In this document: piece by piece, positions 4,895-58,242 of the stretch | Numbering within the stretch: position 1 is the stretch's first letter | How the letters are laid out: each line of letters begins with the position of its first letter | Source of the DNA: a virus | Lineage: Duplodnaviria; Heunggongvirae; Uroviricota; Caudoviricetes | Virus record (IMG/VR): IMGVR_UViG_3300033072_001087 | Coordinates: 50,816-114,815 of that record | DNA: 64,000 nt | Strand: one strand, 5' to 3' | Position numbers and translations under genes: made by a program | Notes under the pieces: generated by a model | What the model was told of the DNA's origin: nothing | Database searches by the model: none | Seen by the model: only the letters and a program-made list of their open reading frames with translations

Positions 4895-4900
4895 CTTTGC

Positions 4901-5155
4901 TTACCTTCTTTTGATGTTAAACTCGGCGGCTTGCTCATCGCTTATGACCCACAAATGACGACGGTTTGTCTCATTGACCAAGTTGCTCGATGCAGGAAAT
5001 AGCTCAATCGCAAATGTCTCTTCGCCGACCATTTCGTTTTTGATTTGCTGTAATACGTCCCACTCGGCGACTATTGGCTGTCCATCACGCCGCTGAATGA
5101 CAATATGTTTGCCGTCCACGCTGCTTGCAGTATAGGTATCCCATATATCTTGCAT
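4901..5155 (-). CDS. Hypothetical protein.
   Basis: 84-aa ORF. Confidence 0.3.
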   Translation of the reverse strand: MQDIWDTYTASSVDGKHIVIQRRDGQPIVAEWDVLQQIKNEMVGEETFAIELFPASSNLVNETNRRHLWVISDEQAAEFNIKRR

Positions 5156-5194
5156 CGCCCACCTTCGTTCACATGGTATAAAATCTATCGAAAA

Positions 5195-5575
5195 CTACTT
5201 CGCAATCTCGTAGAGCGCAGCTAATAACGCCAATGCTGCGCGTTCTGCGATTGAGATGGCATAGTCCTGTCTGGAAACACCGTGATATTCGCCGTTCTTG
5301 CGATAGGTCAGAACGACTCGTCCGTCATCGTGGAATGTGATGTCGAACCCTTTTTCTTGGCATACTTCAACGACCACATTGAGATCGGAGTGGTAATCTG
5401 GAACCCTCACGCTTGCCATAACAATCTCAACGCCTTGCGCATCGCGAGTAATTCCATTTTCTTGAATCTGAGTTTTTAATGGGTGTTCGTACCAGTAATC
5501 GTTGTATTCCGCAACGTATACTGGCTTGAGTCCTAAGTGTACTGCGATTTCTATGTCGATGCTTCTGGCGTTCAT
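5195..5575 (-). CDS. Hypothetical protein. The start was moved to the internal ATG at 5575 (MNARSIDIEI...).
   Basis: The upstream part of the long ORF covers a GC-rich hairpin and is unlikely to be coding. Confidence 0.35.
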   Translation of the reverse strand: MNARSIDIEIAVHLGLKPVYVAEYNDYWYEHPLKTQIQENGITRDAQGVEIVMASVRVPDYHSDLNVVVEVCQEKGFDITFHDDGRVVLTYRKNGEYHGVSRQDYAISIAERAALALLAALYEIAK

Positions 5576-25300: not shown

Positions 25301-27624
25301 TCCTACAGGGCTTTACTGGAATTGCGATGGCTGCAACCGCTGGCGCGGTGACACTAACCATCGCGCTGGGTCAGCTTATCATCGCGCTGGAAGCGATCAA
25401 GGCGGTCGGAACGGCGGGACTGTTATCTGCACTTGCCTCACCGGTTGGGTTGGCGATTGGCGGTGGGATTGCAGCGATCGCAGGTATTGTTGCGCTGAGT
25501 TCGGCGATTGATTCTCTAAATCAGGCGTCGCAAAATGCACTTAATCAGTCCATACGCCCGTTTGTTGACGAACTTGAACGCGCTGCTGCTCAACAACCGA
25601 CGACGACGACGGAACCCGTCGCGATGTCGGATGAGGACCGGACATTTGATTTTGGCGGCGTGGTGTCGCGTGGAAGAGAAATAGGCAGACCGCAATTTGA
25701 GGCTTTTGAACTTCCGAATGTCCCATCGCGCTTTACGCCCGAAATCTACACGCGCTTAAACGATGAAATTGAACGTCAATTCCAAATCGCAGCGCGAAAC
25801 TACGGGCGCGCATCACAATATATACGAAGCGAACAACTCGGCGTTCTTGGAAACTTTGCAACAGGGTTGAATGATCCAGCCTTGCGCGCGCAAACGAGAG
25901 GCGGCGAATTGGAGACCGCGCTTAGAGGCATGGTATTGACAGGTTCAGTAACCAGCCAATATGGACGCGGATTGATTGATTTACTAACCAGCAACGAAGA
26001 TATACCTATATCGCCAGAGCTGCTTCAAAATGTTCCGGTCGAAGAACTTCAAGCTATTTTACAAATTCTACCGGGCGTTAATCAAGAATACATCGCGCAA
26101 CTTCAGGCGACAATCGATCTGCAGCGGCAAGCAAATGAGGTTTGGGGTCAAAATGTTGACGCGGTAAATGAATCAAGAGAAGCGTTGCAAGCCGCATCAG
26201 AAGCCTATCGGCAGATAGCACAATCCGCACAGCTTCAGAGCGACGCTCTTGACGCCATTTACGCCGGTGCCGCTACGCGAGTTGGCGCAATGCTTAACGA
26301 AATACCGGGAGGCATTAGTCAAGAGACTCGCACCGGCATTTTGCAAGGGGTTTATGGCGCTAAACCGCAAGACCTTGCGGCGCTTGAAGAGGCGCTGCAA
26401 AGCTACGCCGATATGTACACCGACTTCATGCTGGACTCTATTCGCACCGCTGAAGACCGTGCGCGTTCGCAACTGCTAGAAATGGAAGACTTCTCGATTG
26501 GGCGGCTTCGTGCGCTAAATGATTTCGCGAGGGATGCACAGCGTGCGGAAGAGGATTATCAACGTTCGCGCCAACAGGCAATTGATGATTATTACGAACA
26601 AGAAGCAAAGGCGCAGGAGGAATACGAAAAGCAGGTCGCTGAAATCAATGGTAACTACGAAGAAGAGCGGCTGAAAGCGCTTGAAAATCATCTCATCGAC
26701 ATGCAGCGGATAGCGGCGGATGTCGATGAATCGATTGCGGCGCGTGATTTCCTTGCGGCGCAAAAACAGATTCGCTCGATGCGTGAACGTCAAGAGGACT
26801 TTGATCGCGAACAGGCGGAACGCAAAGAAGATCTCGATAAGCAGCTCGAAGATCTGATAGACAATCTTGAGGAACAACGCGCCGAACGCGAAAAGTCCTT
26901 CCGTGAACAGATGGCTGATACTGAGGCGCAGTACCGCCTACAGCGTCAACGCGCCGAAGAAGACTTCCGCCTATCGCTGCAGCGCGAGGACGAGGATCGC
27001 GCGCTGCGCCTACGTCGTCAGCAAGAGGAATACAATATTGTTGATCGGCGACGCGTTGAAGACTTTAATCGTCAAGTCGAACAGCTAATCGCGCACAATG
27101 AGGTCATGCGCTTTAATCAAGACTATTGGTTTGGTATTCTCGAAATGGATTATGGCGAACACATGGCGCGAATTCACGCGATGATGTCTCCAGCGGATTA
27201 TGTGGGATATGGCGGCGCAGCAGGGGGAATGGGCGGCACTGGTGGGCTGCCAGCGGATGTGTATCAAGCGCTGATTGACTTTTACAACTCCGCAGACCCG
27301 AATGCTGGCGCAGCGCGTCCGGGCGGCTGGATCCCGCAGTACGCGGATGGAGTAGACTTCATTACCAAAGAGGGGTTGGCGTACTTGCATTTTGGCGAAC
27401 GCGTGTCAAAGAGCGCAGACGGAGTTAGAGAGCGCACGGGCGTCATTGGGAACATCCCGAATATGTTTGCGCCAGTAGCGAATGTGAACGTGAAAGTGGA
27501 GTCGGGCGGGAAAATGTCGAAACGCGAAGAAATGGAATATGCGCGCAGACTCTCGAAACAGATCACGAGTGACGTGATGAATGCGTTTAACGGAGTCATT
27601 GATAATACACGGAGATCATCGTGA
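22315..27624 (+). CDS. Tape measure protein (1769 aa).
   Basis: Very long ORF at the TMP position with extensive coiled coil, internal tandem repeats, and hydrophobic Gly/Ala-rich TM-like segments (AMAATAGAVTLTIALGQLIIALEAIKAVGTAGLL). Confidence 0.85.
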   Translation: MEFRSGYNLGSATAEIRVDTSQLTTALYRARDAADDIQAALTRVVASINQLYAAGDTGMAESLQAQTQALKAMTEQIKAANAATKQAQAQEHKERMAMLANESMMLEAVHKLQMDNIREESSAYSSLAKAITSARRQAENRDKVPASLQRDRTNAQAESRLTALRNQLEKYNSAFIEMARIEAQIGQTSNQRTKQKLEQQLQAYKDFTQKFEAEVRTINALRSQINKDAVGYDLLTSRERTRLRKDISVDKAASDIGLSTGDQRFNTLRDAEFKKQAAEQKAAIEEIARIKKEAAAERERIDTSIAQNAKKSAAEQLAADKAAAKEKERVENEKAAIKAKVLKEISDFEHSARVAQLSADKSAEKERERIDKERLATRKKVLNEISDFEESVRDAQRQKDAETRKFQGQESVDKDKRAERFVNTLHKERQLQDKEQVESQRAIAKLKADIAAKSAADAEAALRREIAAEKEANKERAAALRKANADKKAQLAEEKRLAAESKSVAESKVANATRSVDDAMRRARASMRMSGEQISITRSYDRESPDISQDTSRLIQLKARLSELDAEAIALKQQLRAAFDDPATLDQLITKMNALQAEIDQTTKDSQQMYTAIKGRNDALMARSTVSTDSDKPVIVSPLVKREATRAAIGEVNATIKELQARFKAARVGLPITVDTTQMERSLEDAMVPIRQLQSAFAELKRQFKDLTNDPEAQGLLIHQFEALEAEALRLKGQMGALDNSMDRFEASARRATTGVRGYFNNLRIELERINQTSIGANVQQLGYQLFPAGLVATAGVARGVQTAQTLEETEIAFRGIVGDQKEALALMESLADEARRFGLPVISSVPEFAKLLPIVRNLGYDMEQFVGLAARLATLNPAQGLEGAVRAISELASGSGNDFVSIAERFNIARSALRQAMEETGRNVPEALDRVLTAYGRTNEVALEFGATSRASMNRARDAVDQFLAESMEPLLEAFVPLLENATGLFNAINEGGGFLQGFTGIAMAATAGAVTLTIALGQLIIALEAIKAVGTAGLLSALASPVGLAIGGGIAAIAGIVALSSAIDSLNQASQNALNQSIRPFVDELERAAAQQPTTTTEPVAMSDEDRTFDFGGVVSRGREIGRPQFEAFELPNVPSRFTPEIYTRLNDEIERQFQIAARNYGRASQYIRSEQLGVLGNFATGLNDPALRAQTRGGELETALRGMVLTGSVTSQYGRGLIDLLTSNEDIPISPELLQNVPVEELQAILQILPGVNQEYIAQLQATIDLQRQANEVWGQNVDAVNESREALQAASEAYRQIAQSAQLQSDALDAIYAGAATRVGAMLNEIPGGISQETRTGILQGVYGAKPQDLAALEEALQSYADMYTDFMLDSIRTAEDRARSQLLEMEDFSIGRLRALNDFARDAQRAEEDYQRSRQQAIDDYYEQEAKAQEEYEKQVAEINGNYEEERLKALENHLIDMQRIAADVDESIAARDFLAAQKQIRSMRERQEDFDREQAERKEDLDKQLEDLIDNLEEQRAEREKSFREQMADTEAQYRLQRQRAEEDFRLSLQREDEDRALRLRRQQEEYNIVDRRRVEDFNRQVEQLIAHNEVMRFNQDYWFGILEMDYGEHMARIHAMMSPADYVGYGGAAGGMGGTGGLPADVYQALIDFYNSADPNAGAARPGGWIPQYADGVDFITKEGLAYLHFGERVSKSADGVRERTGVIGNIPNMFAPVANVNVKVESGGKMSKREEMEYARRLSKQITSDVMNAFNGVIDNTRRSS

Positions 27625-28031
27625 GTAGTGTGCGAATTGCCAATGGACATGACAACGAAGCGAGTCTTGAGGAACTTCAGGATATTTTTTCAGGCACCGA
27701 TCCGCTGTTGTTTGCGGAATACACGGCGTATGACGCTGTTGAGACGGAATGGCACGACGCCGAAGCCGTCGAAATCGATGGTGATGGTAATCCGAAATTG
27801 ATCGGCTTGCCGTGGTGCGTCTGGAAATTCGGGCGGCTAACCGCTGCCGAAGTTGTGATGCTGAAGACGCTGGGGCCGAACGTAACCATTAATACGTATA
27901 ACAAGTCAGCAGGCGGATATACAGACTTCAACGCAGTCATGGACTATATTGAGGTTGGAGAATTGGATTGGGATATGGGCGGTTATGATGATGTCAATAT
28001 CACATTCCGCCGACTGGAAGAGATTTTCTGA
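27621..28031 (+). CDS. Putative tail protein.
   Basis: Position immediately after the TMP. No motifs. Confidence 0.35.
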   Translation: MSSVRIANGHDNEASLEELQDIFSGTDPLLFAEYTAYDAVETEWHDAEAVEIDGDGNPKLIGLPWCVWKFGRLTAAEVVMLKTLGPNVTINTYNKSAGGYTDFNAVMDYIEVGELDWDMGGYDDVNITFRRLEEIF

Positions 28032-31000
28032 TGAGCATTACAGTCTACGATCACGGATTGATACGGTCTGGCAAGCAGGTTGTTAAGCGTCGTATCTCTA
28101 TACCGACGCGCGAGTCCGTTTTCAGCGCCGTCGTAACCGGCATCGTACGCGATGATGTCAGCAATGCGATTATCGCCATCGAGTATGACACCGCAACCGG
28201 AGATTACGCCGACATTGAACCCGGCATGACATTGGATGTCGGTACGACAGCCGGGGCTTACGATGTTGGCATGGTCAGAATTAGGGGCTTTGCGACTTCC
28301 GATACCATCCTGATTGCGGAAACGGGGTTCTCTCTGCTTCCGGTTGAAGTTGGCGATCATCTGACGGCGCGCATGGAATTTCGGCTGCATCGCGTTTTGC
28401 CGCGCGGGGTAGGGGAGCGCACAGACGGCGCGACCTACACCAACGACTTCACGCTGTACATGGATTATGACGACGCCTACAGCGACCAAAATGACAGTCC
28501 GCCGCCTAAAGCCAACATCACGCGTTCCGCGACCAGTCAACTTGCGCCGAAACCGGCTGGATGGACAGATGACACGGATTATCGGCTTGTCACGGTCAGT
28601 TCGGCGAAAAGCGAAGCCTACAATGGGAAAACCATCACATCGCGGTTATGGGCGATCGGCGACTGCACGCTGGATACCGGCTACGCACTCACCGATACGA
28701 CGGTGGTGTTGAAAGTACCGGCTGGTTTTCGCTACATCAAGCTGGAAGTCACAGACAGCGATGGCAAGACCGGGTTGATGCGTTATCCCTTGTGGGCGCA
28801 TGATGATGCGTATTTGCCGCTGACAAGTTTTTCGGTGGTGAGTGACGACAGCGATACACTTGGCACCACCATGAATTTCGAGTTTTACGGAGAAGACGAC
28901 TCGGTAGACGAGTCGGTGCTGCCGCCCGGAACACTGCTTTGCTATTGGGAAGAGGCAAAATTCTTTAACACAGCGCCGCCAGATTTGTATCGCGACAGCT
29001 ATCTTGGCTGGGTGAATCGCGTCGCCACGACGCTTAAAATCGGAAAGCGCAGCACGCATCGCGTCGAAACCGCTGGTGTGGGCTGGTGGCTGAATGCGAT
29101 GGGCGGATCTTCGCTCTACATCTACGATCCGGGCGAAACACCGGACAAGTGGTATGAGATGCAGACCATTACCTGTGATAAAGTGGCCTATTTCATTCTG
29201 AAATGGTTTTCAAACGCGCTGGAGCTGTGCAATTTCTACGGCGGCTCAAACACCTATCGGAGCAAGGGCGAAGAAATCAGCATGGGAACCGTCTGGCAGC
29301 AACTTAATTACATGCTGGACGGCTATAAGGGAATTGCGGTGCCGGACTCTCTGAACGGCATTTGGGTCACGCGGCAGTATATGTACAAAAACGACGTTGA
29401 GCGCGGCATAACTGATGATGCCGCCAGCATGACGAGTGCCGATCTGGAAGGCGACACCGGCTTCGTTTGGGCGCAGAATTTTGTTCAGACGGTACAGGCA
29501 ATTGGCGGCGGATCGACCTACGACGGAACAACGCAGATGCTTTTTGCCAGCGCCGCGCCGTTAGCGCCGGGTTATGGCGCGTCGATTGATAATTCGCTTG
29601 CTGTGCGCTTGAATACGAGCGATCCGCAGTTGGAATTGAATGAGCTTACGGGACAACGCCGTGCTGAACTGGACAATCCAAATCGCGATCTCACCATCGA
29701 TACACTCTTGAACTTCGACGTGTTCGAGATGGCGTATGGCGAACCGATCGCCTTTACCTATGCGCATCCAAATATCGCCGGATTGTCGATTTTGACAAAA
29801 CTCGTCATCCGCAGCATTTCTCGTTCGCACAGCTCGGATTTCCGCGAACAACCAAAGCGGCTCTCAATCCGCGTCGATGCGGTGCCTGCGTGGACAGTTG
29901 GGGACACAAAGCCGGTTGAGGACGACAGTATTGACGATTGGGGTGGCGGTGGCGGCGATCCGCCGGTAATTGTTTTGCCACCGCCAGTCGATTGGAGCGG
30001 CGATGGGATACCGAGCGGGGCGGTTGTTCTCGCTTATTTCGGCACTGACAATTACGTGTATATCACGCGCAACTATCGCGCCACAAACCCAACGTGGTCG
30101 CGTTATGCCTTATCACTTGATGGGACGTTGATTGCGTTTGTCGTAGACGCGCGTTCGCCGTTGTATATGGGCAGCGGCACAGCAGTTCATGGCTGGATCG
30201 CTACAACGACTAAGATTTACAAGATCGAAGACATCTTCGGCGCGCGGACGCTGACGGCTTCCTTTACGTTCCGTTCCACTTCCAGTCTGCGCAGTATGGA
30301 TTTCTCGTATGGCGCAGCCAATCGCGGGCTTGTCGTAACAAATTACAACGACGGAGTCTACGAGACGCATACCAGTGATGGTAGTTCGTGGAGCAGCGAA
30401 GCATTAATCAGCGGGCATTTAGGAAACTCGAAAACGCTAGTGGCAACAGGCGGCGCACTTGGAATTGCGGTCAATCCATGCGGAACGGTCTTGTCGTATG
30501 AAGGAAGTGGGGAGTGGGTAGTTCAAGGAGAAAGCAACGGTGGCGGTTATTACAGTTTTGTTGGCGCATTAAGCGATAGTTCTTGTTTCGATTTTCAAAC
30601 GAGGGCGTGGAGTATTCCATTTGGTTTTGGAGGAGGGCATAGCTACATTAATTGCAGCGGGACACCAGTCGGTTCCGGCTCTTTTCATAACAACACATCA
30701 TTTGGTTTTATTACCAGCGGATTAATGTTCAGAATCGATTGGAACGCCTATTATCCGCCAACATTCCGAGTGCGAGTTGACGGATGGGTGGACGACGATG
30801 GCAGCGCGTATCAACCCGGCGCATTTTTGGGAAGCTCGCTTGTCGGGCTTGCCTATACGACTGCGAAAAACTCCACTGTGCAGGGCGGATACAAAGACGC
30901 ATCGGCATATGGCGCATCTTTTTCGCTTGATAGTACGGCGTGGGGGCATGGTGGTCATGCGGCAGGTGATATTTATGCAGGGTATGGTGGGGAAACGACC

Positions 31001-31435
31001 CTGTTTTATGGAGCGACTGTAAGTGGCGAAAGACGCCTGTATCGACGCAGATCGGGGATTGACTCGGACGTAAGTCCATCTTACGGTGGCACGAAATACG
31101 GACCGTGGCAATCGCGCCACCAAATCTATGTTTATCCACTTAATTCAAGCATCGTCATCTGCGTTGGCGGCAATGCCGATCAAAGCCTGTGCGGAGTCTG
31201 GGTGTCTCGAAATGAGGGTGCGACTTGGACAAACATCGTCACGCCTTCTAGTAGTAGTGACAGAATTGAACGCGCCGCATTTTCAGGTGACGATCCCGAT
31301 GTCATCTACCTGTATGGCAAAACGGGAAAGAATTATATTTCCACCGATTTTGGTGTAACATTGAAAGAGCGCACGGGGAATATTGCGCAAATGGCAAGCG
31401 TCGGAACTTTCGTCAATCTGTGCGGCGGTGCGTGA
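28031..31435 (+). CDS. Large tail/baseplate protein with BNR/Asp-box repeats (putative host-specificity protein).
   Basis: 1134 aa. Asp-box-like SRNEGATWTNI and SDGSSWSSE. Confidence 0.5.
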   Translation: MSITVYDHGLIRSGKQVVKRRISIPTRESVFSAVVTGIVRDDVSNAIIAIEYDTATGDYADIEPGMTLDVGTTAGAYDVGMVRIRGFATSDTILIAETGFSLLPVEVGDHLTARMEFRLHRVLPRGVGERTDGATYTNDFTLYMDYDDAYSDQNDSPPPKANITRSATSQLAPKPAGWTDDTDYRLVTVSSAKSEAYNGKTITSRLWAIGDCTLDTGYALTDTTVVLKVPAGFRYIKLEVTDSDGKTGLMRYPLWAHDDAYLPLTSFSVVSDDSDTLGTTMNFEFYGEDDSVDESVLPPGTLLCYWEEAKFFNTAPPDLYRDSYLGWVNRVATTLKIGKRSTHRVETAGVGWWLNAMGGSSLYIYDPGETPDKWYEMQTITCDKVAYFILKWFSNALELCNFYGGSNTYRSKGEEISMGTVWQQLNYMLDGYKGIAVPDSLNGIWVTRQYMYKNDVERGITDDAASMTSADLEGDTGFVWAQNFVQTVQAIGGGSTYDGTTQMLFASAAPLAPGYGASIDNSLAVRLNTSDPQLELNELTGQRRAELDNPNRDLTIDTLLNFDVFEMAYGEPIAFTYAHPNIAGLSILTKLVIRSISRSHSSDFREQPKRLSIRVDAVPAWTVGDTKPVEDDSIDDWGGGGGDPPVIVLPPPVDWSGDGIPSGAVVLAYFGTDNYVYITRNYRATNPTWSRYALSLDGTLIAFVVDARSPLYMGSGTAVHGWIATTTKIYKIEDIFGARTLTASFTFRSTSSLRSMDFSYGAANRGLVVTNYNDGVYETHTSDGSSWSSEALISGHLGNSKTLVATGGALGIAVNPCGTVLSYEGSGEWVVQGESNGGGYYSFVGALSDSSCFDFQTRAWSIPFGFGGGHSYINCSGTPVGSGSFHNNTSFGFITSGLMFRIDWNAYYPPTFRVRVDGWVDDDGSAYQPGAFLGSSLVGLAYTTAKNSTVQGGYKDASAYGASFSLDSTAWGHGGHAAGDIYAGYGGETTLFYGATVSGERRLYRRRSGIDSDVSPSYGGTKYGPWQSRHQIYVYPLNSSIVICVGGNADQSLCGVWVSRNEGATWTNIVTPSSSSDRIERAAFSGDDPDVIYLYGKTGKNYISTDFGVTLKERTGNIAQMASVGTFVNLCGGA

Positions 31436-45960: not shown

Positions 45961-47029
45961 CGTTACCCTCTGTGCGTTCCTTGAAAGCATTGCGGTAGAT
46001 AATAGGTTCAATCGACTTTCCCGACTTAAGCGCAAACAAATACCCATGTACATCTTTCGGGTAATTTGCTTGTACCCACAGCGCGAAGTCCCGTTGAGTT
46101 CCGCTCGGCGCAATTGATATTGCGTCCACGCACTCGTTTGTGATGCGTGTTACTGTTTCATCTATCTCTCTTTTCCAAGCACGAATTTGATCAAGGAACT
46201 CGTCTGGTACGCCATCAATTAGCTGCTCGTATTTGTCTTGCGCAACCGCATCAAGGATTCGGTTAAAGCTGCATCCCGTCAAAATGCGATGAGCCATTAC
46301 ATACGCATCCCCCTTGACTTTAAGACGCATATTGTCCGAATAGCGCAGCACCCAGCCCTCCTCATTCGCACTTAAAGATTGCGCCGCATTCAAAATGTCA
46401 TCTATACTATCGAAGGTGTAGGTTCGCGGACGCATAAACCCATACGCATTTGCTATAACATCTAATTCAGCCGCATAAAGCTCGTGACCTAATTGAATAT
46501 TGCGCCCGCCAAGCAGCACAACACCCTCGTAATCGCCGTAATTTACGACGATGCGGTTTTCTGGATAGATGATTTCAAATAACAGCGTAACCCTGCTGTC
46601 AAATGCGAAATTGGGATGATGTTGTTGAAACCATGCGCTCGCCCATTGTGCTTGAGCGCCGGTGAACGATCCGCGCGTTGCCATTTTCCATTGATCGTTG
46701 TGGAAATACAAAATACCAAGCGAACCATCCATCTTTTCCGTTATCTCGATCAAACGAGCGCCCGGCATAGGAAAGATTTGTCCGTAATTCCAGAACTTTG
46801 AGAACGGACGGGCTATGCACTCGCCGTTCTGAGTGTTAAAAATCAGCCCTCGTGAATTCGCTTCGAACCAGTTCCATCCTGACGGCGGCTTAAATTGTGC
46901 TGCTTGGGTGTAGTTGAATAACACTAACCCGTCGTGGTATGTAGCTGATACCTCTCCATACTGGCTCCAATCTTGTTCGCCGCGCTGGATTAACGACTGT
47001 ATATCGCCCAAGGACCGGATACTATTCAT
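45947..47029 (-). CDS. ATP-dependent RNA/DNA ligase-family nucleotidyltransferase.
   Basis: ITEKMDGSLG is the KxDG lysine-adenylylation motif I. 360 aa. Confidence 0.5.
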   Translation of the reverse strand: MNSIRSLGDIQSLIQRGEQDWSQYGEVSATYHDGLVLFNYTQAAQFKPPSGWNWFEANSRGLIFNTQNGECIARPFSKFWNYGQIFPMPGARLIEITEKMDGSLGILYFHNDQWKMATRGSFTGAQAQWASAWFQQHHPNFAFDSRVTLLFEIIYPENRIVVNYGDYEGVVLLGGRNIQLGHELYAAELDVIANAYGFMRPRTYTFDSIDDILNAAQSLSANEEGWVLRYSDNMRLKVKGDAYVMAHRILTGCSFNRILDAVAQDKYEQLIDGVPDEFLDQIRAWKREIDETVTRITNECVDAISIAPSGTQRDFALWVQANYPKDVHGYLFALKSGKSIEPIIYRNAFKERTEGNDEAS

Positions 47030-47820
47030 GATGCTCCCCCAAATAAGCTCAATTGCACAACGCCGTCTTTAAGCGGCTTATCCGTAGGAAATTCGGCGAT
47101 GCGCCGGTTTGCCATTTCGACATATTTTCCAGAACGATCGCAGCCTAAGAAACAACGCTTGTGTTTAAGCGCGGCTTCAGCAACCGTTCCGGATCCCATA
47201 TACGGATCAAGGATAACTTGCGCATTCGTCGTGCGAATGCAGCGGCTTGCCAATTCCAGCGGAAATGGCGCGGGATGTTCGGTACCAGAGGCTTGTGGAA
47301 TATCCCACACATCCGTCAACCCGGACGATCCTTCGACAAACGTAAAATCAGCCATCGCGATGATGTAAATGACCTCATAGCTAGGCAAGAAATAACCACG
47401 ATTGTGATTGACTCCACCAGATCGCCGCCAAATAATAATCTGACGCAGCGGCGCATCACCGATGATCTTTTCAGCGTGACGTTGGTATAACCCATTCTGC
47501 ACGCGCCACTTGTGGTTGTAGAATATGACCCCTGTTTTCGGGTTAATCACACGCAGCAGTTCGCGCATCACCTGCCGCTGCCAGTCAATGTACTCATCTT
47601 CCGGCAAATCGTCTGCGTAGCCGTCGTAGCCATTTGTGACTAATTCGCCATGCCATCCCGAAAGCGGCGGATGCTTGAATGAATTGCCGCTGCTGTTGCG
47701 GATATTGTATGGCGGCGAAGTCACGACCGAGTCAACAAAACCATCGGGAATTCGCTTAAGGTAATCTAAATCTTTCTCAACAGAAATTGTATTAAGTTGC
47801 GGTGGGAGTACCATCAGCAT
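47026..47820 (-). CDS. DNA methyltransferase (N4/N6 class, ParB-less).
   Basis: VVTSPPYNIRN motif IV and DPYMGSGTVAEAA motif I. Confidence 0.8.
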   Translation of the reverse strand: MLMVLPPQLNTISVEKDLDYLKRIPDGFVDSVVTSPPYNIRNSSGNSFKHPPLSGWHGELVTNGYDGYADDLPEDEYIDWQRQVMRELLRVINPKTGVIFYNHKWRVQNGLYQRHAEKIIGDAPLRQIIIWRRSGGVNHNRGYFLPSYEVIYIIAMADFTFVEGSSGLTDVWDIPQASGTEHPAPFPLELASRCIRTTNAQVILDPYMGSGTVAEAALKHKRCFLGCDRSGKYVEMANRRIAEFPTDKPLKDGVVQLSLFGGAS

Positions 47821-49624: not shown

Positions 49625-50143
49625 TCAAGGGTGAGGTTGATTGAATGTCAAGGCAAAAAAGGCGTCGGCGTCAATGTAGTTCGTTCCACCATTTTCTGCG
49701 GCTAGCTTATCCTCAATGCGATCACCGATGTAGACCGTTTCTTTGAGGTCGTACCCCAGCTTCTTTGCCAGAAAATGCAGCATTCCCGGCATTGGCTTCC
49801 GCCACTGCGGATCGAGCGAGAATCCATGTTCAGGGTGGTTGAGAGCGTACTGCATCTGTCGCGTATAAGCAACGGATGGATGCCACAGCGCCGCAGCGAA
49901 AGCATCAGCGTTCACCAATACGGATAGCGCCGATAGCTTGAGCAAGACATCGCCAAGCGTGACATAGCCGAGCGAAACCCCTGCTTGGTTCGTCGCAATG
50001 GCGATGGCGTTTCGCTTTGAGAGCCGACGGACCGCGCCTACGCGGTTGTAGTAGATGCTTTCCCCGAAAGACTTACCCGTGAGCGGCTTTGCGTTTTTCG
50101 AGTGTGCTAACGTGCCATCGAGATCAAAGATGTAAAGCATGGT
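49625..50143 (-). CDS. HAD-superfamily phosphatase.
   Basis: MLYIFDLDGTL (motif I DxDGT), and a late IGDRIEDKL...D motif. The N-terminal 150 aa of the track ORF are judged non-coding. Confidence 0.6.
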   Translation of the reverse strand, partial: TMLYIFDLDGTLAHSKNAKPLTGKSFGESIYYNRVGAVRRLSKRNAIAIATNQAGVSLGYVTLGDVLLKLSALSVLVNADAFAAALWHPSVAYTRQMQYALNHPEHGFSLDPQWRKPMPGMLHFLAKKLGYDLKETVYIGDRIEDKLAAENGGTNYIDADAFFALTFNQPHP

Positions 50144-50190
50144 GCCTCGTTTCTGGCGGATGCGTAGTGCATCCGCCAGTGCGTGTGTTC

Positions 50191-50391
50191 TTATTTCTTG
50201 ATACTGACTGAAACAAGCGGCTTTGATAGGCGGATGATGAGTAGCCATGCGATGAGCGCAATAGCACCCCAAAGCGGATTGACGCCAAATGTCCAGATCA
50301 CGATCGCCCATCCGATGATCCCGATAGACAGCATCACGCCAAGAAAAATCACGAATAGCGCCACGAATAACAACCCAAACAGCGTCTTCAT
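50191..50391 (-). CDS. Small two-TM membrane protein.
   Basis: 66 aa, two clear hydrophobic helices. Immediately downstream of the SPFH gene. Confidence 0.4.
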   Translation of the reverse strand: MKTLFGLLFVALFVIFLGVMLSIGIIGWAIVIWTFGVNPLWGAIALIAWLLIIRLSKPLVSVSIKK

Positions 50392-50402
50392 GACAGACTC
50401 CT

Positions 50403-51695
50403 TTAAGCCGGAGGTGTTGGCGAGACAGGAACGGCGGTCGGTGCAACAGGCGGAATGAACGGCATGACGCTATCGCTGTCCATGATGTCCGGCAGCTGTC
50501 CGTCCCATCGGCGCACAGCTTCCAGATAGATCGAGTCTGGGTTCTCTGCAAGCGCTTCGGCTTGTGCGCGCTGGACTTCGGCATTCGCCTGCCCAGCAAT
50601 CACAGTCGCGGTTGCTGCGGCTTGACCACTGACAACGAGCGCATTGTTATAGATCGCAGTCTGTGTCGCACCAGCAATCGCTGCATTTTGTTGTTCCTCG
50701 CGGATGTAGGACTCGTCAATCGCCTCTTGGATGCGAACATTGTCATAAACCAACCCATTCATGCCGCCCAAGACTTCAATGGTAATGCCGTCCTGTGCAA
50801 ATGCGGCCGCCACTTCTGTGCGTGCGATTTCCCAAATCATCGATTTTTCACGCTGTGCCTGATCGACCGTGCGCTGCCCAAACTCGCGATCCAGAACCAC
50901 CTGCACGCGATCACGCACAACCGAGTCCAGCACCGAACCGAGATCGCGCGCATAGCGAACAGTCGCAAGCGGATCGCTAACCGCAATCGTCCCGTAGTGC
51001 GCCAGATACAGCGCGGCGTCTTCGGCGGCAATACGCGCGGTAATCACCGCGCCCACTGCGATCCCTTGACTATCGACGCTCTCAACCATCAACGCTTCGA
51101 CGGAGTCGGCGTCTTGACCGGGCAGGATTTGTGTCCACTCGCGCGATACTTCGGTTAGCGGCACAAGAATAACCGTGTGACTCGGACGCCAGACGCCCGG
51201 CAGATCAAGGAATCCGCCTGTCTTTACCCATGAACGCGTGATCGGAATCTGTGGACGAAGATCGCTCAAGTTTTCCCAATACTGTTCATTATGTTCGATT
51301 TCGCTGGCGTCATCAATGCCAGCCGTCAGACTTACCGTAAATGCAGCATAATTCGACTCGACCGCCACAAATTCGCGCGGCGGCGAACATGCGCCAGCAC
51401 CAATCGCGACAATCAATACCACCGCAGACAACACGACCGATTTGGCGAACCGCTTGATCAGCGGCACCAGCACATCGATCGCTTGAAATAGAAACGCCAC
51501 AATCACCGACAGCCCAACGATATTGAGCAGCACGTTTTGAATGGCATAACGCGATGCTTCGACTTCACTGTAATTCCCTCGCGCACCTTCGATGGTGAGC
51601 CGCGCCGCCGCTTCCGTCATGCTTGGCATCACAATGCCGTAGATGATGAGCATGACCAAAAGTAACACTGCCAGAATTCCCGCTTTGCGCATCAT
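50403..51695 (-). CDS. SPFH/band-7 (stomatin/HflKC-like) membrane protein.
   Basis: N-terminal TM ILAVLLLVMLIIYGIV, then an SPFH-like core and an Ala/Gln-rich C-terminal coiled coil (AIAGATQTAIYNNALVVSGQAAATATVIAGQANAEVQRAQAEALAENPD). ATGA coupling to the upstream gene. Confidence 0.45.
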   Translation of the reverse strand: MMRKAGILAVLLLVMLIIYGIVMPSMTEAAARLTIEGARGNYSEVEASRYAIQNVLLNIVGLSVIVAFLFQAIDVLVPLIKRFAKSVVLSAVVLIVAIGAGACSPPREFVAVESNYAAFTVSLTAGIDDASEIEHNEQYWENLSDLRPQIPITRSWVKTGGFLDLPGVWRPSHTVILVPLTEVSREWTQILPGQDADSVEALMVESVDSQGIAVGAVITARIAAEDAALYLAHYGTIAVSDPLATVRYARDLGSVLDSVVRDRVQVVLDREFGQRTVDQAQREKSMIWEIARTEVAAAFAQDGITIEVLGGMNGLVYDNVRIQEAIDESYIREEQQNAAIAGATQTAIYNNALVVSGQAAATATVIAGQANAEVQRAQAEALAENPDSIYLEAVRRWDGQLPDIMDSDSVMPFIPPVAPTAVPVSPTPPA

Positions 51696-52188
51696 TCGAT
51701 TATCTCCAGACCTTTTCTCTTGTACAAGTCGATACGTTGTTCGGTCCACGCGTGCCGATCCAGCACGCGGCATACCCTATTTCGGATGTCATCGGCGTAA
51801 TACGACCACAATGACCATTCGTCCCGTTCATCCAGCACCAGCACACATGATGAGGCGGACAAGTCCGGTGTCAGCAGTAATTCAGCCTCACAGGATTGCG
51901 CCGGATGAATGATTTGCCACGCATCCCCCCGGAAATTGAGGTTGGTTCCGCGCTTGTAGTGCGTGATTTCGCCTGTTTCGTGCAGCGCGCACAAGCGCTT
52001 GTGCCAGCGGAAATACGCCGTCCAATCCTTCGCATATAGGTCAATATCGCCATAGAAGTCCGCTTGCCCTGTCAGCCACAGCGGATAGCCCCCTGCGATC
52101 ATCAAGCCGCTGCCGACCATTTCGCGCAGCAGCGGCTCGTGTCGAATGGCGCGGCGCAATTCAAGGCGTTCGATCTGTCCGTTCGCCA
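51692..52188 (-). CDS. Minimal nucleotidyltransferase-fold protein.
   Basis: GGYPLWLTGQADFYGDIDLY is a G[GS]-x9-13-DxD NTase motif. Start at 52188 with a ggag RBS. Confidence 0.4.
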
Positions 52189-52487
52189 TTGCATTCTCCG
52201 TAGTACAGCACTTGGTATTCCCGCGCTCTCCACGCGTTTTGCATGATATACGCCCCGTCATTCCGCTTGTACACGATGTATTGACGATTGAACGACGAAT
52301 CGACGCTGATAATTTGCGGGACTCCGTTTTCAATGCACACATCGTCAAGAATTGGCGTTCCGCGACTATCGCCGCTATTAGGCGGAAGCAAGATAATAAC
52401 CGTGATAAACACGGCGACCGCAAGAACTACCCCAACAAGAGCAGGGAATAGATCGTGCGCGATTAGACGCCGCAGCATTTTTCTCAT
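52161..52487 (-). CDS. Small protein with N-terminal TM anchor.
   Basis: ALVGVVLAVAVFITVIILL. Confidence 0.3.
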   Translation of the reverse strand: MRKMLRRLIAHDLFPALVGVVLAVAVFITVIILLPPNSGDSRGTPILDDVCIENGVPQIISVDSSFNRQYIVYKRNDGAYIMQNAWRAREYQVLYYGECNGERTDRTP

Positions 52488-53536
52488 TGCCACCACTTCC
52501 AATCGACGCGCGTGATGTTCAGCGGCACAAATTCGCGCTGCCAACCGAGTTCGTCGTACATCACGCGGTCAAAAAGCGCGAACAATTGTTCAGGCTTGTA
52601 CAGCCGCGCGTGCTTGTCCGCCAACGTACATGCCCTGAAGTATTTGACCATCGGTTCGGGCATATCCTGACACGCCCAAAGCATACACTTCGCCGCCATG
52701 TAAATATCGCTGGCAGGTACGGTATCGGTACTCCCAAGCAGCGTTTCGGTCGGATAAAAGTTCTCCCACCGGTCGATCATGTACGAGAACTTCGCGCCCG
52801 CCTCGACCGCGCATGTCCAGTCGATCAGGTAGCCGCGATGCTGTCCGCCGCCACCGATGCCACCGGGTTTGAGCAGGATGTTATCCGGCACTACCGCCCC
52901 GTGCAAGTAGCCAAAGGCGTGCGGGATGGTCAGCGCAGCCAGAACCCGCCGCCAGATCCACGAAATCGCTTTCACAGGAACATGACGATCATAGATGTCA
53001 GCAAGCGTTGTCAGCGAAATCAGTTCATCGCCCTTCACATCATCGCTGTAGGCGAGAATGTGATAGTAGCCGTCGTCGTCCATGTCGCTTTCGACGAGGC
53101 GCGGAATGTACTTGAACGCTTCGCCTTCGTACAACGGCAGCGCGTTGATCCGGTTTAGGATGGCTTCTTCGCGGTCGAACAAGTCTTTGTCGCCGGTGAG
53201 AAGCCGTTTTGTGACCGTCCCATCCGCATTCAACGTGACGGACGCGATTTCGCCGACGCCGAGCATGTGTGAATCATCTTCGACCCACAGCTCATATTTC
53301 GCGTTCAAGTCGGCGATGAAGTCCTCCGCCAGCCCGTACACTTCCTTGTCGCCCATGTGTGCATCGGGGTGATAGGACTTCACAAGCCGCCGCCGAACGT
53401 CGTCAATTTGCGCTTCGACGTTCCCAAAAACCATCGCCGGTGTCGATTGGCGCATCTGTGCGTGCAGTGAACGCAGTTGATCGCGTACGGGCAATTGCTG
53501 AAAAGTTTGCAGGTTCATGTGCGACTCCATTCGCAT
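52484..53536 (-). CDS. J-domain (DnaJ-like) fused to a protein-kinase-like fold.
   Basis: RRRLVKSYHPDAHMGD carries the HPD tripeptide of J-domains. YLHGAVVPDNILL resembles the kinase catalytic loop (HRDLKPENILL, with the Asp replaced), and YLIDWT is DFG-like. Confidence 0.4.
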   Translation of the reverse strand: MRMESHMNLQTFQQLPVRDQLRSLHAQMRQSTPAMVFGNVEAQIDDVRRRLVKSYHPDAHMGDKEVYGLAEDFIADLNAKYELWVEDDSHMLGVGEIASVTLNADGTVTKRLLTGDKDLFDREEAILNRINALPLYEGEAFKYIPRLVESDMDDDGYYHILAYSDDVKGDELISLTTLADIYDRHVPVKAISWIWRRVLAALTIPHAFGYLHGAVVPDNILLKPGGIGGGGQHRGYLIDWTCAVEAGAKFSYMIDRWENFYPTETLLGSTDTVPASDIYMAAKCMLWACQDMPEPMVKYFRACTLADKHARLYKPEQLFALFDRVMYDELGWQREFVPLNITRVDWKWWQ

Positions 53537-54663: not shown

Positions 54664-55722
54664 TTACAGCCTGCGAAGTGTGTGTGATTGATCAGCGGTG
54701 ACGATCGAACCCGCGCCGAACAGCGTCAGCGCGCGATCGATGACTTGCAGCCCATTGCTCGTCGCGGTGTTGCCATTCGACAGGGCTTCCATGATTTGCT
54801 TCTTGCTTGCGCCTGCCGTGCGCGCGATCAACGCGGTTGTAAGTTCCGACATATCGGAAGCGTCCGCCATCTTGATCGTGCGTTCCGCGCCCAACAAGCC
54901 GCTCCAACGCGCAAAACAGTTGTCGCGGAAATCAGACCCGTAGCCGTCGCTTTCCGAACAAAGCACGCCAAACACATCATATTTCTTCTTGACTTCAGCG
55001 ACTAATTCTTCGATCTCCATATCCCGAAACGCCTCCTTTGGAAGCTCGCCGACAGTCGAACGCTGCATTTTGTCGCTCATCTCACCGTTACTGATAGTGC
55101 CGATGGGCTTGTCCCGATACAGACTGCGCAAGCGCGAGGCGTAGATTCGATCGTAAGGAAGCTCGTCGAACATGATGACAAGGATGCCTTTGCGCCCGTC
55201 TTTCCAGATTTCAAGATCGTTCTGGTAAGCAGCCGCCCACAACGCGGCTTCATAGGCTTCGTGCCCATTGCCGTAGCCGCGTCCCGCTGGCCACAGACGC
55301 TCAAGCCACTTGGTCATCACCGACAGATCGGCTTCGAATTGCGACAACTGCAGCGCCCCATCCGCATTATCGCCGTAATAATCGTCAACCGCGCCGATTT
55401 GGAGGTTTGGATGAAACTCCTCCGGGATAAGGTATTCCCACAGCCCGTGAATCTGCGGCATGTCGTCCATGATCTTCCGCGCTGCCTCCGCGTTCGATCC
55501 GGTCACGTCAACAATCAGACTCGCCGAAATCAACGTCTTGTCCGACCGATCTTTCGGCTTGAGCGAATAGCGTTTGCCGCCGAACGCCGGATCCAACGCT
55601 GGATGCAGGCTGCTGCCAGTCTGTACGGTTTTGCCGTTATAGCTGAAGACCGTGCCTCCCGTTGACCGATACGCCGAAACCGCTTGCGCGGTTTGCTGCG
55701 CGTTACCGCGTGATGCTCCCAT
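54664..55722 (-). CDS. von Willebrand factor A-like domain protein.
   Basis: LIVDVTGSN is a MIDAS-like DxSxS variant. Weak. Confidence 0.35.
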   Translation of the reverse strand: MGASRGNAQQTAQAVSAYRSTGGTVFSYNGKTVQTGSSLHPALDPAFGGKRYSLKPKDRSDKTLISASLIVDVTGSNAEAARKIMDDMPQIHGLWEYLIPEEFHPNLQIGAVDDYYGDNADGALQLSQFEADLSVMTKWLERLWPAGRGYGNGHEAYEAALWAAAYQNDLEIWKDGRKGILVIMFDELPYDRIYASRLRSLYRDKPIGTISNGEMSDKMQRSTVGELPKEAFRDMEIEELVAEVKKKYDVFGVLCSESDGYGSDFRDNCFARWSGLLGAERTIKMADASDMSELTTALIARTAGASKKQIMEALSNGNTATSNGLQVIDRALTLFGAGSIVTADQSHTLRRL

Positions 55723-55778
55723 GTGATCGTCCTTTCATATCCTATATTGAACTATTATAACACACCGCGCTTGTTAGT

Positions 55779-57404
55779 TCAAGCCCCAAGTGTGCCACTT
55801 AAGAGTTCCAGCACTTGTGCTTTTTCCGCCACCCATTCTAGAATACTCTCTGGTAATTCAGAGAGAATTTCATCGATAGAGCGCAAGCGTAGGTGCGCTG
55901 CCATCAATAATAAATCCTGTGGGGTGATTGTGTCATCCCCTACAAAATCGGGGTAATATTGTGTAACATACTCCAATGGCTCTAGCGCATCCTGATCGAT
56001 CGCCTGTTCAACGACGGAAAAGAGCGTCGGATCATGAAAATCGCCGCGATCAAGCAAGCGTAGGTTGTGACTGCGAAACTCGCGTTTCAAGTACCAGTGA
56101 TGCGTGAGGTATCCATAAGCAACCGACTGCTCCAGCATGTGTGAGTCGGGAACGGGCGCAACAATGGTGACGGGCTGTTTTATGGACGGCGTTTCGCGAA
56201 TAGAATCGATCGGCAATGACAGCGACAGCGCGATCTTCTGCTGTGCGTCGATTCGTTCCAAGTGATTAGAAGAGGAAAGCAGTTCAATCAGCCGCAGCGC
56301 CGCGTTTTTGCGTTCTTGAAACGATTGTGGATTGCCGCGCAGTTCATGGGCGATCATGTAATCCACAACTGGAATCGCCTGCGCGATCGCGCTTGCCCAT
56401 GTCCCCGCCTTCACTAGATCGTCCGGATCCGCGCCCTGCGGAAGTTCTGCTACCCACAAGTCATAAGCTGTCTTCGCCAACTGCGCGATCCCACCGACCG
56501 TCGCGCTCTCCCCCGCCTTGTCACCATCCAGCGCGAGAATGGTTTTGCTCTTGCCGATGAGTTTTGCCTGTGCGTCGGTCAGTTGTGTACCCATCTGCGC
56601 GACGACATCCCGATACCCCGCCAAATGACACTGAATGACATCGAAATAGCCTTCTACCAGCACCATTGAACGTGTTGAGCGAATGACGGATTTGCCCTGC
56701 ACGTAGCCGTACAGGATGGAGCCACGATCAAAGATTTCGGTGCGTGGCGTATTTAAGAATTTCGGCTGCACATCATCGCTCAATGAGCGCCCGGAAAAGC
56801 CGACGATCGCGCCACTTGCATCGAATAACGGAATAATCAACCGTCCGCGAAACAATTCCGTAATTCCGTGTTCGCCTTTATGCAGCAACCCGATTGCCAA
56901 CAATTCGCTTTCCTTGAAGCCCCGCTTTTCGAGTGTTTTTGCGACGCCCCAACGCGGTGAATAGCCCAAGCGAAATTCGCTCATGAGCGCTTCGCCAAGC
57001 CCACGCGCTTCAAGGTGATCGCGCGCTGGATTAGATGTTTCGACAAGCGACTGACTGTACAATTCAGCCGCCGCCGCCAACGCGTCGTAAAGCCGCTGCT
57101 TGTGCCGCGATCCCTGCCGTTGAATTTCGACTCCCGCTTCTTTCGCAAGATTCTCAATCGCGGTTGCCAGATCCCAACCGTGTTTGAGCCGCGCGAAATC
57201 AATGACATCGCCGCCCGTTGCGCACGCCCCAAAACAGCGCCATTTCCCCGTATCCGCGTTGAGAACAAAAGAAGGCGTCGAATCGTCGTGCAGCGGACAG
57301 CGGCATTTGTAGCGATTGGTTCCGGTTTGCTTGACGTCTGGCGCGAACTGCCGTACATACGACAGCAGATCGATTTTGTTCTTAATATCTTCGATTGTGG
57401 ACAA
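55779..57404 (-). CDS. dnaG: DNA primase.
   Basis: Zinc-binding CHC2 region YKCRCPLHDDSTPSF...WRCFGAC, TOPRIM LVEGYFDVI...DGDKAG. Confidence 0.85.
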   Translation of the reverse strand: MSTIEDIKNKIDLLSYVRQFAPDVKQTGTNRYKCRCPLHDDSTPSFVLNADTGKWRCFGACATGGDVIDFARLKHGWDLATAIENLAKEAGVEIQRQGSRHKQRLYDALAAAAELYSQSLVETSNPARDHLEARGLGEALMSEFRLGYSPRWGVAKTLEKRGFKESELLAIGLLHKGEHGITELFRGRLIIPLFDASGAIVGFSGRSLSDDVQPKFLNTPRTEIFDRGSILYGYVQGKSVIRSTRSMVLVEGYFDVIQCHLAGYRDVVAQMGTQLTDAQAKLIGKSKTILALDGDKAGESATVGGIAQLAKTAYDLWVAELPQGADPDDLVKAGTWASAIAQAIPVVDYMIAHELRGNPQSFQERKNAALRLIELLSSSNHLERIDAQQKIALSLSLPIDSIRETPSIKQPVTIVAPVPDSHMLEQSVAYGYLTHHWYLKREFRSHNLRLLDRGDFHDPTLFSVVEQAIDQDALEPLEYVTQYYPDFVGDDTITPQDLLLMAAHLRLRSIDEILSELPESILEWVAEKAQVLELLSGTLGA

Positions 57405-57624: not shown

Positions 57625-58242
57625 CTACCCTATATCGAACAACTGCATCTGTTTTACCATATCCAACGCCTCTGGAATTGACTCCATTGGCATTTGTTTG
57701 CGTTTGCTAATTTTCGCGAAGGTAAACGGTCGTCCGATTCCCAATCTCCACGTAAACCAGACCGATGCGAATTGACTACTGCTGCCCTCAAAGCCGATGT
57801 TTGGCATTCCGTAGTCGATACGCTTATTCATGAACACGAACTCGAACCCGTAGCGATCAAAGAGCGCCTGCGCCTGCCCGGATCCCAATACATCGAGTGG
57901 CATGATCAGCGCAAATGGCTTATCCAGCAAATAGGCGCGTGTCAGCCATTTATACTTTATGCTGAACGGCGGATTTGTGACCATGACATCGTAGTGATCA
58001 GGAACGCTTTCACTCAGAAAGTAGTTCTGTCCGGTCAAAAGATCGCCGCTAATGACCTTATGTCCGTTTGTCAAGAGCGTCCGTTCAATATAACCACCCC
58101 CTCGCGCTGGTTCCCAAATCACCCACTCCGGCTTCAAGTACGGAAGAATCGGATCGAGCGCGTAATCAGGAGTTTGGCACTGATCGCGTCGATTTACGGT
58201 CGATCCGTTCGACTGCTTGTCGTTGCGCTTGGGCTTGCTCAT
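57625..58242 (-). CDS. N6-adenine DNA methyltransferase.
   Basis: MVTNPPF (NPPF motif IV) and an upstream EPARGGG motif-I-like region. Confidence 0.7.
   Translation of the reverse strand: MSKPKRNDKQSNGSTVNRRDQCQTPDYALDPILPYLKPEWVIWEPARGGGYIERTLLTNGHKVISGDLLTGQNYFLSESVPDHYDVMVTNPPFSIKYKWLTRAYLLDKPFALIMPLDVLGSGQAQALFDRYGFEFVFMNKRIDYGMPNIGFEGSSSQFASVWFTWRLGIGRPFTFAKISKRKQMPMESIPEALDMVKQMQLFDIG

Follow-up and report, generated by a model that had tools for sequence, protein, structure and literature searches.

A J-domain/pseudokinase protein of a tailed phage and its linkage to a vWA-fold protein and a PurA-like enzyme in phages and actinomycetes

The DNA considered here is a stretch of 64,000 nucleotides (nt) from a virus of the Caudoviricetes (IMG/VR record IMGVR_UViG_3300033072_001087, positions 50,816 to 114,815), the whole of which is referred to as the window. 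It derives from a tailed phage: genes for a large terminase, a portal and a major head protein lie on the plus strand, while the minus strand carries a replication module with DnaB, DnaG, a RecT-like protein and methyltransferases. The subject of this report is a minus-strand gene whose product combines an N-terminal J-domain with a protein-kinase-like fold that lacks the canonical catalytic aspartate, and which is termed the J-pseudokinase below. It is the last of three tightly packed genes that overlap or abut in the order vWA>PurA>J; the other two encode a protein with a predicted von Willebrand factor A (vWA) fold and a PurA-like enzyme. The features are collected in table 1.

A first-pass annotation, made by a model from the sequence alone, had placed the J-pseudokinase gene at 52484-53536. 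An open reading frame (ORF) with these limits is present on the minus strand, but its upstream end is probably too long. There are three in-frame ATGs at the 5′ end. The third, at 53518, shares the sequence ATGA with the stop codon of the PurA-like gene ahead of it, has GGAG 6 nt to its 5′ side and is the codon at whose Met the JGI gene call P0001 (344 amino acids (aa), 100% identical, on a contig of 114,815 bp) begins. The real start is most likely ATG 53518 and not 53536, and residues are therefore numbered here on the 344-residue form that begins there. The PurA-like gene is translationally coupled to the J-pseudokinase gene. The positions that the first-pass annotation gave for the HPD, HGAVVPDNILL and IDW motifs are correct and are those of table 1.

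Table 1. Positions of the features discussed. Coordinates are those of the window, except where a locus is named.
Feature	Position	Strand	Basis or conservation
J-domain/pseudokinase gene, 344 aa + stop	52484..53518	minus	start signals and P0001
J-domain core, residues 27-77: helix I (VFG), helix II (VRRRLVKSY), HPD loop, helix III	53288..53440	minus	family profile and DSSP helices
HPD motif, residues 50-52	53363..53371	minus	H 150/157, P 147/157, D 149/157 relatives
Bilobal protein-kinase-like domain, residues 85-344	52487..53266	minus	AlphaFold2 pLDDT 88.4; Foldseek PDB and BFVD probability 1.0; phrog_3043
β3 Lys K104, VAIK equivalent	53207..53209	minus	K 144/157 at aligned or adjacent column
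αC Glu E117	53168..53170	minus	E 154/157
Catalytic-loop equivalent HGAVVPDNILL, residues 206-216; Ala208 at HRD-Asp place, Asn213 kept	52871..52903	minus	
IDW, residues 232-234, DFG equivalent; Asp233 kept	52817..52825	minus	
PurA-like (adenylosuccinate-synthetase-fold) gene, 382 aa	53515..54663	minus	Pfam Adenylsucc_synt 1.4e-49; phrog_1211
vWA-fold protein, 352 aa, MIDAS-like D72-x-T74-G-S76; first gene of three-gene block	54664..55722	minus	phrog_2971; AlphaFold2 and Foldseek
Sigma-70-like promoter match TTGAAC-17-TATAAT with upstream TG, in 56-nt gap between primase and vWA genes	55754..55782	minus	
Nudix-NrtR gene, bacterial locus L095	9105-9941		
Nudix-NrtR gene, bacterial locus L002	5021-5854		

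A J-domain followed by a non-canonical kinase fold

Searched as a single sequence, the window protein has one clear match, to phrog_3043 ('kinase', 1.3e-16). Its scores against Pfam APH, Pkinase and Kdo are all below threshold (Pkinase 13.5 bits against a cut-off of 31.7), NCBIfam likewise returns only sub-threshold kinase and DnaJ matches, and the best sequence matches in the PDB are DMPK and MRCK at about 1e-3, with DnaJ at 0.35. Because these searches gave only weak matches, family profiles were needed. Two word-seeded searches yielded nine relatives, and an exhaustive HMMER search over 1.84 billion cluster representatives then gave 1,704 matches at E≤1e-3, of which 1,242 also pass E≤1e-10; the length of almost every member of the family falls within 320-390 aa. 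Residue counts given below come from an alignment of 157 relatives.

When 40 family N-termini are combined into a profile, it matches Escherichia coli DnaJ at 5.4e-9, and all 60 of the matches listed for it are J-domain proteins, including DnaJ, DNAJA/B/C, auxilin, CbpA, Sec63, HscB and SV40 large T antigen. Of ten relatives, two score above the Pfam DnaJ threshold (2.6e-7). The HPD motif is kept in about 95% of the relatives, the basic helix II (VRRRLVKSYHPD) is conserved in the family, and both this helix and the Phe/Leu pattern of helix III agree with the DnaJ consensus. In an AlphaFold2 model built on ten sequences, DSSP assigns helices at residues 27-31, 35-49 and 58-77 around the HPD loop, so that HPD 50-52 sits between the second and the third; extra N-terminal helices are predicted at 3-7 and 11-24. 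The profile match and the conservation of HPD bear out the N-terminal HPD-containing J-domain that the first-pass annotation had proposed. Nor are the motifs chance tripeptides, since HPD is conserved in about 150 of the 157 relatives, His206 in 155 and Trp234 in 151.

The remainder of the same model (predicted local distance difference test, pLDDT, 88.4; predicted template modelling score, pTM, 0.87) consists of a β-rich N-lobe and a helical C-lobe that follow the J-domain. Foldseek aligns it with Pim1, CASK, CK1, Wee1 and Syk (E about 1e-8) and with JAK2, all at a probability of 1.0, with template modelling scores of approximately 0.6-0.7 on the target, and viral Ser/Thr kinases match it in BFVD. 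Pfam Pkinase is matched by six of ten relatives, with E-values down to 5.1e-9. A phosphotransferase of the APH type was considered and rejected: the score is 14.5 bits against a cut-off of 23.2, the Asp of the Brenner motif is absent and the structural neighbours are Hanks-type kinases. The protein-kinase/APH-like fold suggested in the first-pass annotation is therefore retained as a Hanks-type kinase fold, to whose eukaryotic-type neighbours the model is closer, and its APH half is dropped.

The catalytic residue that the family lacks belongs at position 208, the place of the HRD Asp. Here the window protein has Ala (HGA), as had been noticed from the sequence, and the relatives have Ala (124), Gly (20), Ser (5), Asn (4), Cys (2) or His (2); none of the 157 has Asp, and positions 207-210 are never Asp or Glu. 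The Mg-binding Asn at position 213 is His in 105 relatives and Asn in 42, and the DFG Asp at position 233 is kept in 124, the others including 19 with Gly and 13 with Asn. The HRD His (His206) and Pro211 are almost invariant (the latter in 156), the glycine-loop Gly89 is found in 143, and position 212 is variable (Asp 45, Glu 38, Pro 20, Ser 19). Asp271, Arg305 and a YPxE (APE-like) motif scarcely vary. The window protein is among the better-preserved members, with Lys104, Glu117, Asn213 and Asp233 kept and only the catalytic base missing. About 20% of the relatives have Gly or Asn for the DFG Asp yet keep HPD, and the J-domain is therefore under stronger selection than phosphotransfer chemistry.

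By the usual definition, a kinase fold without one or more of the VAIK Lys, the HRD Asp and the DFG Asp, the whole family is, as judged from its sequences, one of pseudokinases. This agrees with the first-pass proposal of a pseudokinase or atypical kinase, the fold being modelled and the catalytic Asp absent. The window protein should not be called a Ser/Thr kinase, because the HRD Asp is missing.

Two further conserved features of the family, both outside the kinase canon, were observed. A motif of its own, DNDL, stands just before αC at residues 110-113 (53180-53191; D109, N116, D128 and L133 of 157 relatives); the window protein has DKDL here. The other is a near-invariant His227 (52838-52840), which precedes the DFG-type Asp by six residues.

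A three-gene module in phages and bacteria

Homologues are widespread and carry discordant names. A tblastn search of 50,697 phage records found 204 with a homologue, all but two of them of the Mycobacterium Bixzunavirus (cluster C) type, in which the protein is annotated 'serine/threonine kinase' or 'kinase'. A further 508 matches were confirmed in GTDB species genomes; actinomycete copies are named 'molecular chaperone DnaJ' in Nocardiopsis, and IMG copies 'serine/threonine protein kinase'. Each domain has thus been noticed separately in database names, and both 'DnaJ' and 'Ser/Thr kinase' mislead.

The first-pass annotation regarded J-domain fusions to kinase folds as no described class of phage protein. 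With respect to databases this does not hold, given the 204 GenBank phage records and phrog_3043; with respect to the literature it does, as searches found no paper on the fusion, on the loss of the catalytic Asp or on the three-gene combination. Mycobacteriophage ORFs resembling J-domains were mentioned as early as 2012 (PMC3486835). In a 2026 review that cites a 2020 census, of 49 unique class C J-proteins from phages 48 are said to be without any further known domain (PMC13254874). What the first-pass annotation missed is the most informative feature of the locus, namely the linkage of the J-pseudokinase to the vWA protein and the PurA-like enzyme.

To describe this linkage, 80 chromosomal loci drawn from the 508 GTDB matches (Actinomadura, Spirillospora, Thermomonospora, Streptomyces, Micromonospora, Nocardiopsis and others, and one Anaerolineae metagenome-assembled genome, MAG) were examined, and 13 phage contigs from IMG/VR were added, which range from 21 to 417 kb (twelve of them 97-417 kb). 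Single-linkage clustering of all ORFs in these high-GC loci gave two giant clusters of spurious ORFs, and targeted tblastn with the window and Nocardiopsis proteins was used instead. The J-pseudokinase, vWA and PurA-like genes are adjacent and co-oriented in 92 of 96 loci, which span actinomycetes, the Anaerolineae MAG, IMG/VR phages and Bixzunavirus, and in every locus all module genes are on one strand. The order is Nudix>J>vWA>PurA in 72 loci, J>vWA>PurA in 17 and Nudix>vWA>PurA>J in three; the last three genes of this rarest arrangement have the order seen in the window. Of the four exceptions, two are cut by contig ends, one is without the vWA gene and one is without the PurA-like gene.

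The flanks vary by taxon: ruvCAB/yajC/apt/relA in Nocardiopsis, a gamma-glutamyltranspeptidase and an amino-acid permease in Actinomadura, and the replication module in phages. The cassette is therefore self-contained. A relative with 39% identity repeats the layout of the window, with DnaB, DnaG, vWA, PurA-like and J-pseudokinase genes, further genes and PNK3P. In the two annotated bacterial loci (Nocardiopsis and Actinomadura), no obvious prophage or defence island surrounds the module, which lies among housekeeping genes instead. Membership of a known defence system was considered and found no support: PADLOC gave the J-pseudokinase only generic kinase-domain matches (MkoA 2.5e-11, PD-T4-6) and found no match for the vWA or PurA-like proteins.

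Two relatives illustrate how closely the architecture is shared. Colt gp251 (QAY14165.1; 357 aa; 'serine/threonine kinase'), a Bixzunavirus member of phrog_3043, is a true homologue by BLASTP (1e-24, 33% identity over the kinase-like domain; identity is given elsewhere as about 32%) and has the motifs AVHPDR (N-terminal), HGAITPDNILI and LIDW in common with the window protein. Its neighbours are the vWA-like gp252 and the PurA-like gp253, as in the window, but in the order J>vWA>PurA and not vWA>PurA>J. The name given to Colt and other Bixzunavirus proteins suggests a working kinase, for which their sequences offer no support, and literature searches found no functional study of a Bixzunavirus homologue. 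The Nocardiopsis protein WP_378780842.1 ('molecular chaperone DnaJ'; E 3.6e-24) belongs to the same family with the same architecture: it has HPD, HGAVVPEHVLI and LVDW, and vWA and PurA-like genes follow. The actinomycete copies differ from that of the window in being chromosomal, in having an NrtR-like Nudix-winged-helix gene ahead of them and in having His for the Mg-binding Asn.

The vWA partner has no sequence match in Pfam or the PDB, even when searched as a profile, and its identity is taken entirely from predicted structure. Its AlphaFold2 model (pLDDT 80.8) is matched by Foldseek to integrin beta-I, the CD11b I-domain, vWF A3, a pilus-adhesin vWA domain and NorD, and the family invariants D72/T74/S76/D186/E187 fit a metal ion-dependent adhesion site (MIDAS). 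Homologues open with a near-invariant Met-Gly. Similarity to DUF444/YeaH is negligible (one of 22 members, E 0.04).

The PurA-like partner is closest to canonical adenylosuccinate synthetase (AdSS; structure 4m0g at 9e-29, E. coli 1ade at 7.5e-28). It keeps the GDEGKG P-loop, NGGxNAAH (Asn38/His41), FEGAQG (Gln224) and YVTSS. In E. coli AdSS L-aspartate is bound by the loop GATTGRRRR, which contains Thr300, Thr301, Arg303 and Arg305; its equivalent in the window is GLPELQGAWR (TTGRxRR replaced by PELQGAWR), and QGA[FW]R occupies this place in most relatives. All 91 module-linked PurA-like genes have the P-loop and EGAQG, and none has the canonical TTGRxRR. From these motifs, the enzyme probably still activates a 6-oxopurine nucleotide, and it is unlikely to bind its second substrate as PurA does. 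An identity as PurZ, of the 2-aminoadenine (Z-genome) pathway, is not supported, the match to canonical AdSS being far above that to PhiVC8 PurZ (6fm1, 4.8e-6); no search for DatZ or MazZ was made.

Regulation and neighbouring genes

In actinomycetes, a gene for a Nudix domain fused to an NrtR winged-helix domain lies just upstream of the J-pseudokinase gene, and such a gene is present in 73 of the 80 bacterial loci (two examples are given in table 1). This suggests that an ADP-ribose-type nucleotide ligand controls the bacterial cassette. A Nudix homologue also lies a few kb from the module in two phage loci (L091 and L092), and no Nudix-NrtR gene was found in the window. The sigma-70-like match ahead of the vWA gene is a possible but weak candidate for the operon promoter; such matches are no more numerous in the region than in shuffled sequence.

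Several other genes in the window may be recorded. A small ORF (52161-52477, minus strand; MLRRLIAHDLFPALVGVVLAVAVFITVIILLPP...) begins 8 nt past the J-pseudokinase stop and looks like a single-pass membrane protein. Further downstream are an SPFH/Band-7 protein with N-terminal hydrophobic segments (50403-51773, minus strand; phrog_200, 'lipoprotein') and a PNK3P/HAD-type polynucleotide 3′-phosphatase (49625-50599, minus strand), whose listed ORF is over-extended and whose real start is probably near MLYIFDLDG. SPFH/Band-7 and PNK3P genes likewise follow the module in the related contig L097, and in Colt a polynucleotide kinase is encoded two genes upstream of the J-pseudokinase. Another related module-carrying phage contig, of 115 kb (L096), encodes a Ro60/TROVE protein with a vWA domain and a sigma-70-family factor (1-1526 and 4634-5470). 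Three genes resembling DNA methyltransferases occur in the window, at 5807-7105 (plus), 47026-47820 (minus) and 57625-58242 (minus), and in one of them an N-terminal ParB-like domain is fused to an N6/N4 methyltransferase. Within the structural module, two long plus-strand ORFs (22315-27624, 1,769 aa; 28031-31435, 1,134 aa) have no PHROG match at 1e-5; presumably they are tape-measure or tail genes from a lineage of phages that has been little sampled.

Proposed function and its alternatives

The interpretation that we favour, and hold tentatively, is that the J-pseudokinase is a class C J-protein in which the non-catalytic kinase fold serves as a binding module, bringing host DnaK to the vWA/PurA-like pair or to a target. 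The N-terminal J-domain would dock on host DnaK and trigger ATP hydrolysis through the HPD loop. The kinase-fold domain, its catalytic base lost, would most likely bind a nucleotide or a protein and not transfer phosphate. The J-pseudokinase would then be one subunit of a module that includes the co-transcribed vWA/MIDAS protein and the non-canonical PurA-like enzyme, with pseudokinase and vWA as adaptors carrying the ATP-driven remodelling by DnaK to the PurA-like enzyme or its target. Recruitment of host DnaK can reasonably be inferred, because the family conserves both HPD and the basic helix II, and tblastn with E. coli DnaK as the query found no gene for an Hsp70 in the window or in the flank of any locus; with no phage Hsp70 gene found, the J-domain would have to use the DnaK of the host.

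Each part of this architecture has counterparts elsewhere. GAK/auxilin-2 (DNAJC26) of animals is the one well-known protein that contains both a kinase domain and a J-domain in one chain. Its order is the opposite of that in the window protein: the kinase is N-terminal and active, the J-domain is C-terminal, and PTEN-like and clathrin-binding regions lie between them. GAK is eukaryotic, and its kinase/J-domain fusion is of independent origin. Loss of the HRD Asp is seen in MLKL ('HGK'), ILK and HER3 ('HRN'), ATP-binding pseudokinases that keep the Lys, the Glu and (mostly) the DFG Asp and act as scaffolds or switches. The window protein has no specific sequence relationship to any of these, its best structural matches being the generic eukaryotic protein kinases Pim1, CASK and CK1.

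For the module as a whole, a parallel is found among systems in which a vWA/MIDAS protein serves as the adaptor to a target enzyme and is encoded beside a kinase-fold protein or an NTP-driven chaperone component: the MoxR/vWA pairs CbbQO and NorQD, the TerY-P triad and PrkA-YeaH (PMC7159879). MoxR AAA+ ATPases and their vWA co-chaperones activate Rubisco (CbbQO) and NO reductase (NorQD), and Kaur et al. point out that MoxR can be replaced by other NTPases, Hsp70 among them, and that vWA-associated components include inactive kinase domains (PMC7159879). NorD is itself among the structural matches of the window vWA protein. The window module differs from the MoxR and TerY-P systems in that no AAA+ ATPase and no PP2C phosphatase were seen and the kinase fold is non-catalytic; by analogy, J-domain and Hsp70 would be the motor.

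Several points weigh against the adaptor reading. When searched singly, the window protein misses the Pfam DnaJ threshold. No separate helix IV is seen in the AlphaFold2 model, in which helix III runs nearly straight into the kinase N-lobe. This is the sole departure of the model from a textbook J-domain; of the structure pictured in the first-pass annotation, the bilobal kinase fold and helices I-III of the J-domain are predicted. We infer the recruitment of DnaK, the lack of catalysis, the association of the three proteins and the client, and it is the last two of these that count on the negative side. The parallel with MoxR/vWA systems is an analogy only. Finally, because Lys104, Glu117, Asn213 and Asp233 are kept, the window protein may bind ATP and Mg and may even carry out slow or atypical catalysis. 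PKA is not wholly inactivated by mutation of its HRD Asp, and SelO and SidJ are pseudokinases with catalytic activities of other kinds.

This last point can be developed into an alternative of its own, which we judge unlikely: that the family performs atypical catalysis (slow phosphotransfer, AMPylation or another nucleotidyl transfer), either with DnaK as the substrate on which the J-domain docks or with the vWA/PurA-like partner being modified. The model is a compact and confident kinase fold, and the retention of Lys in 144 relatives, Glu in 154, Asn or His at position 213 in 147 and Asp233 in 124 of the 157 has the pattern of selected nucleotide or metal binding. Such modification of chaperones has precedents in the bacterial effectors LegK4 and HopBF1, whose targets for phosphorylation are Hsp70 and Hsp90, and in FICD, which AMPylates BiP. 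However, no acidic residue substitutes for the catalytic base at 207-210 and Asp212 is not conserved; the fifth or so of relatives that have lost the DFG Asp have kept HPD; and no phosphatase or other enzyme able to reverse the modification was noticed among the module genes.

An improbable alternative is that the three genes form a nucleotide-based conflict module for defence or anti-defence, in which the PurA-like enzyme makes or converts a purine nucleotide (for example, by re-aminating IMP-type products of deaminase defences, or by producing a signal), the pseudokinase senses it and the J-domain couples it to DnaK. Such a function would suit a module common to phages and bacteria, a nucleotide-sensing NrtR-type Nudix regulator upstream in most bacterial loci, a pseudokinase that keeps its nucleotide-binding residues and a PurA-like enzyme that keeps its P-loop, Asn38/His41 and Gln224 motifs while its second-substrate loop is altered in 91 of 91 cases. 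It is harder to reconcile with the generic nature of the PADLOC matches and with bacterial loci that lie, where examined, among housekeeping genes and not in obvious defence islands, and no support for it was found in the literature.

A precedent of a different kind is Rki (RB43 gp057w), the one characterised phage J-domain protein: it belongs to class C, its HPD is functional and its target is the DnaK of the host (PMC3486835). If the window protein behaved similarly, its J-domain would draw DnaK off a heat-shock regulator (sigma32, or HspR in actinomycetes) and so raise chaperone levels for virion assembly, the kinase-like domain being a stabilising or targeting appendage and the operon linkage incidental; the conserved HPD and the position of the gene in an early/replication-type module beside primase and helicase genes would fit. 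We regard this as very doubtful, since it leaves unexplained both the chromosomal copies in about 500 actinomycete species under an NrtR-like regulator and the vWA/PurA-like linkage, which holds in two gene orders, and since Rki has no kinase-like domain. Rki is also small and has no reported vWA/PurA-like partners, and no homology to it was detected outside the J-domain of the window protein.

A bolder reading, and one to which we likewise give little credence, is that the three proteins form a hitherto unrecognised Hsp70-dependent nucleotide-transforming machine common to actinomycetes, with their ADP-ribose-type NrtR switch, and large phages. The PurA-like enzyme, without its L-aspartate loop, would activate a 6-oxopurine nucleotide and join to it a different amine, which could come from another metabolite or from the side chain of a protein; the pseudokinase would read the nucleotide state, and the J-domain would use DnaK to load, release or reset the enzyme. 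If this were true, the machine would serve phages either in reshaping the purine pool of the host or in reversing immunity that deaminates or depletes purines.

J-domain proteins choose the work that Hsp70 does, and more and more pseudokinases are being recognised as switches and scaffolds; a large family in prokaryotes and phages that joins a J-domain to a pseudokinase is undescribed in the literature searched. Bixzunavirus phages such as Bxz1, I3 and Colt are genetically tractable on Mycobacterium smegmatis. It is the conserved module, of which no description was found in the literature, that gives the finding its interest: the near-obligate linkage of the three genes points to an uncharacterised, self-contained pathway that is maintained by phages and actinomycetes alike.

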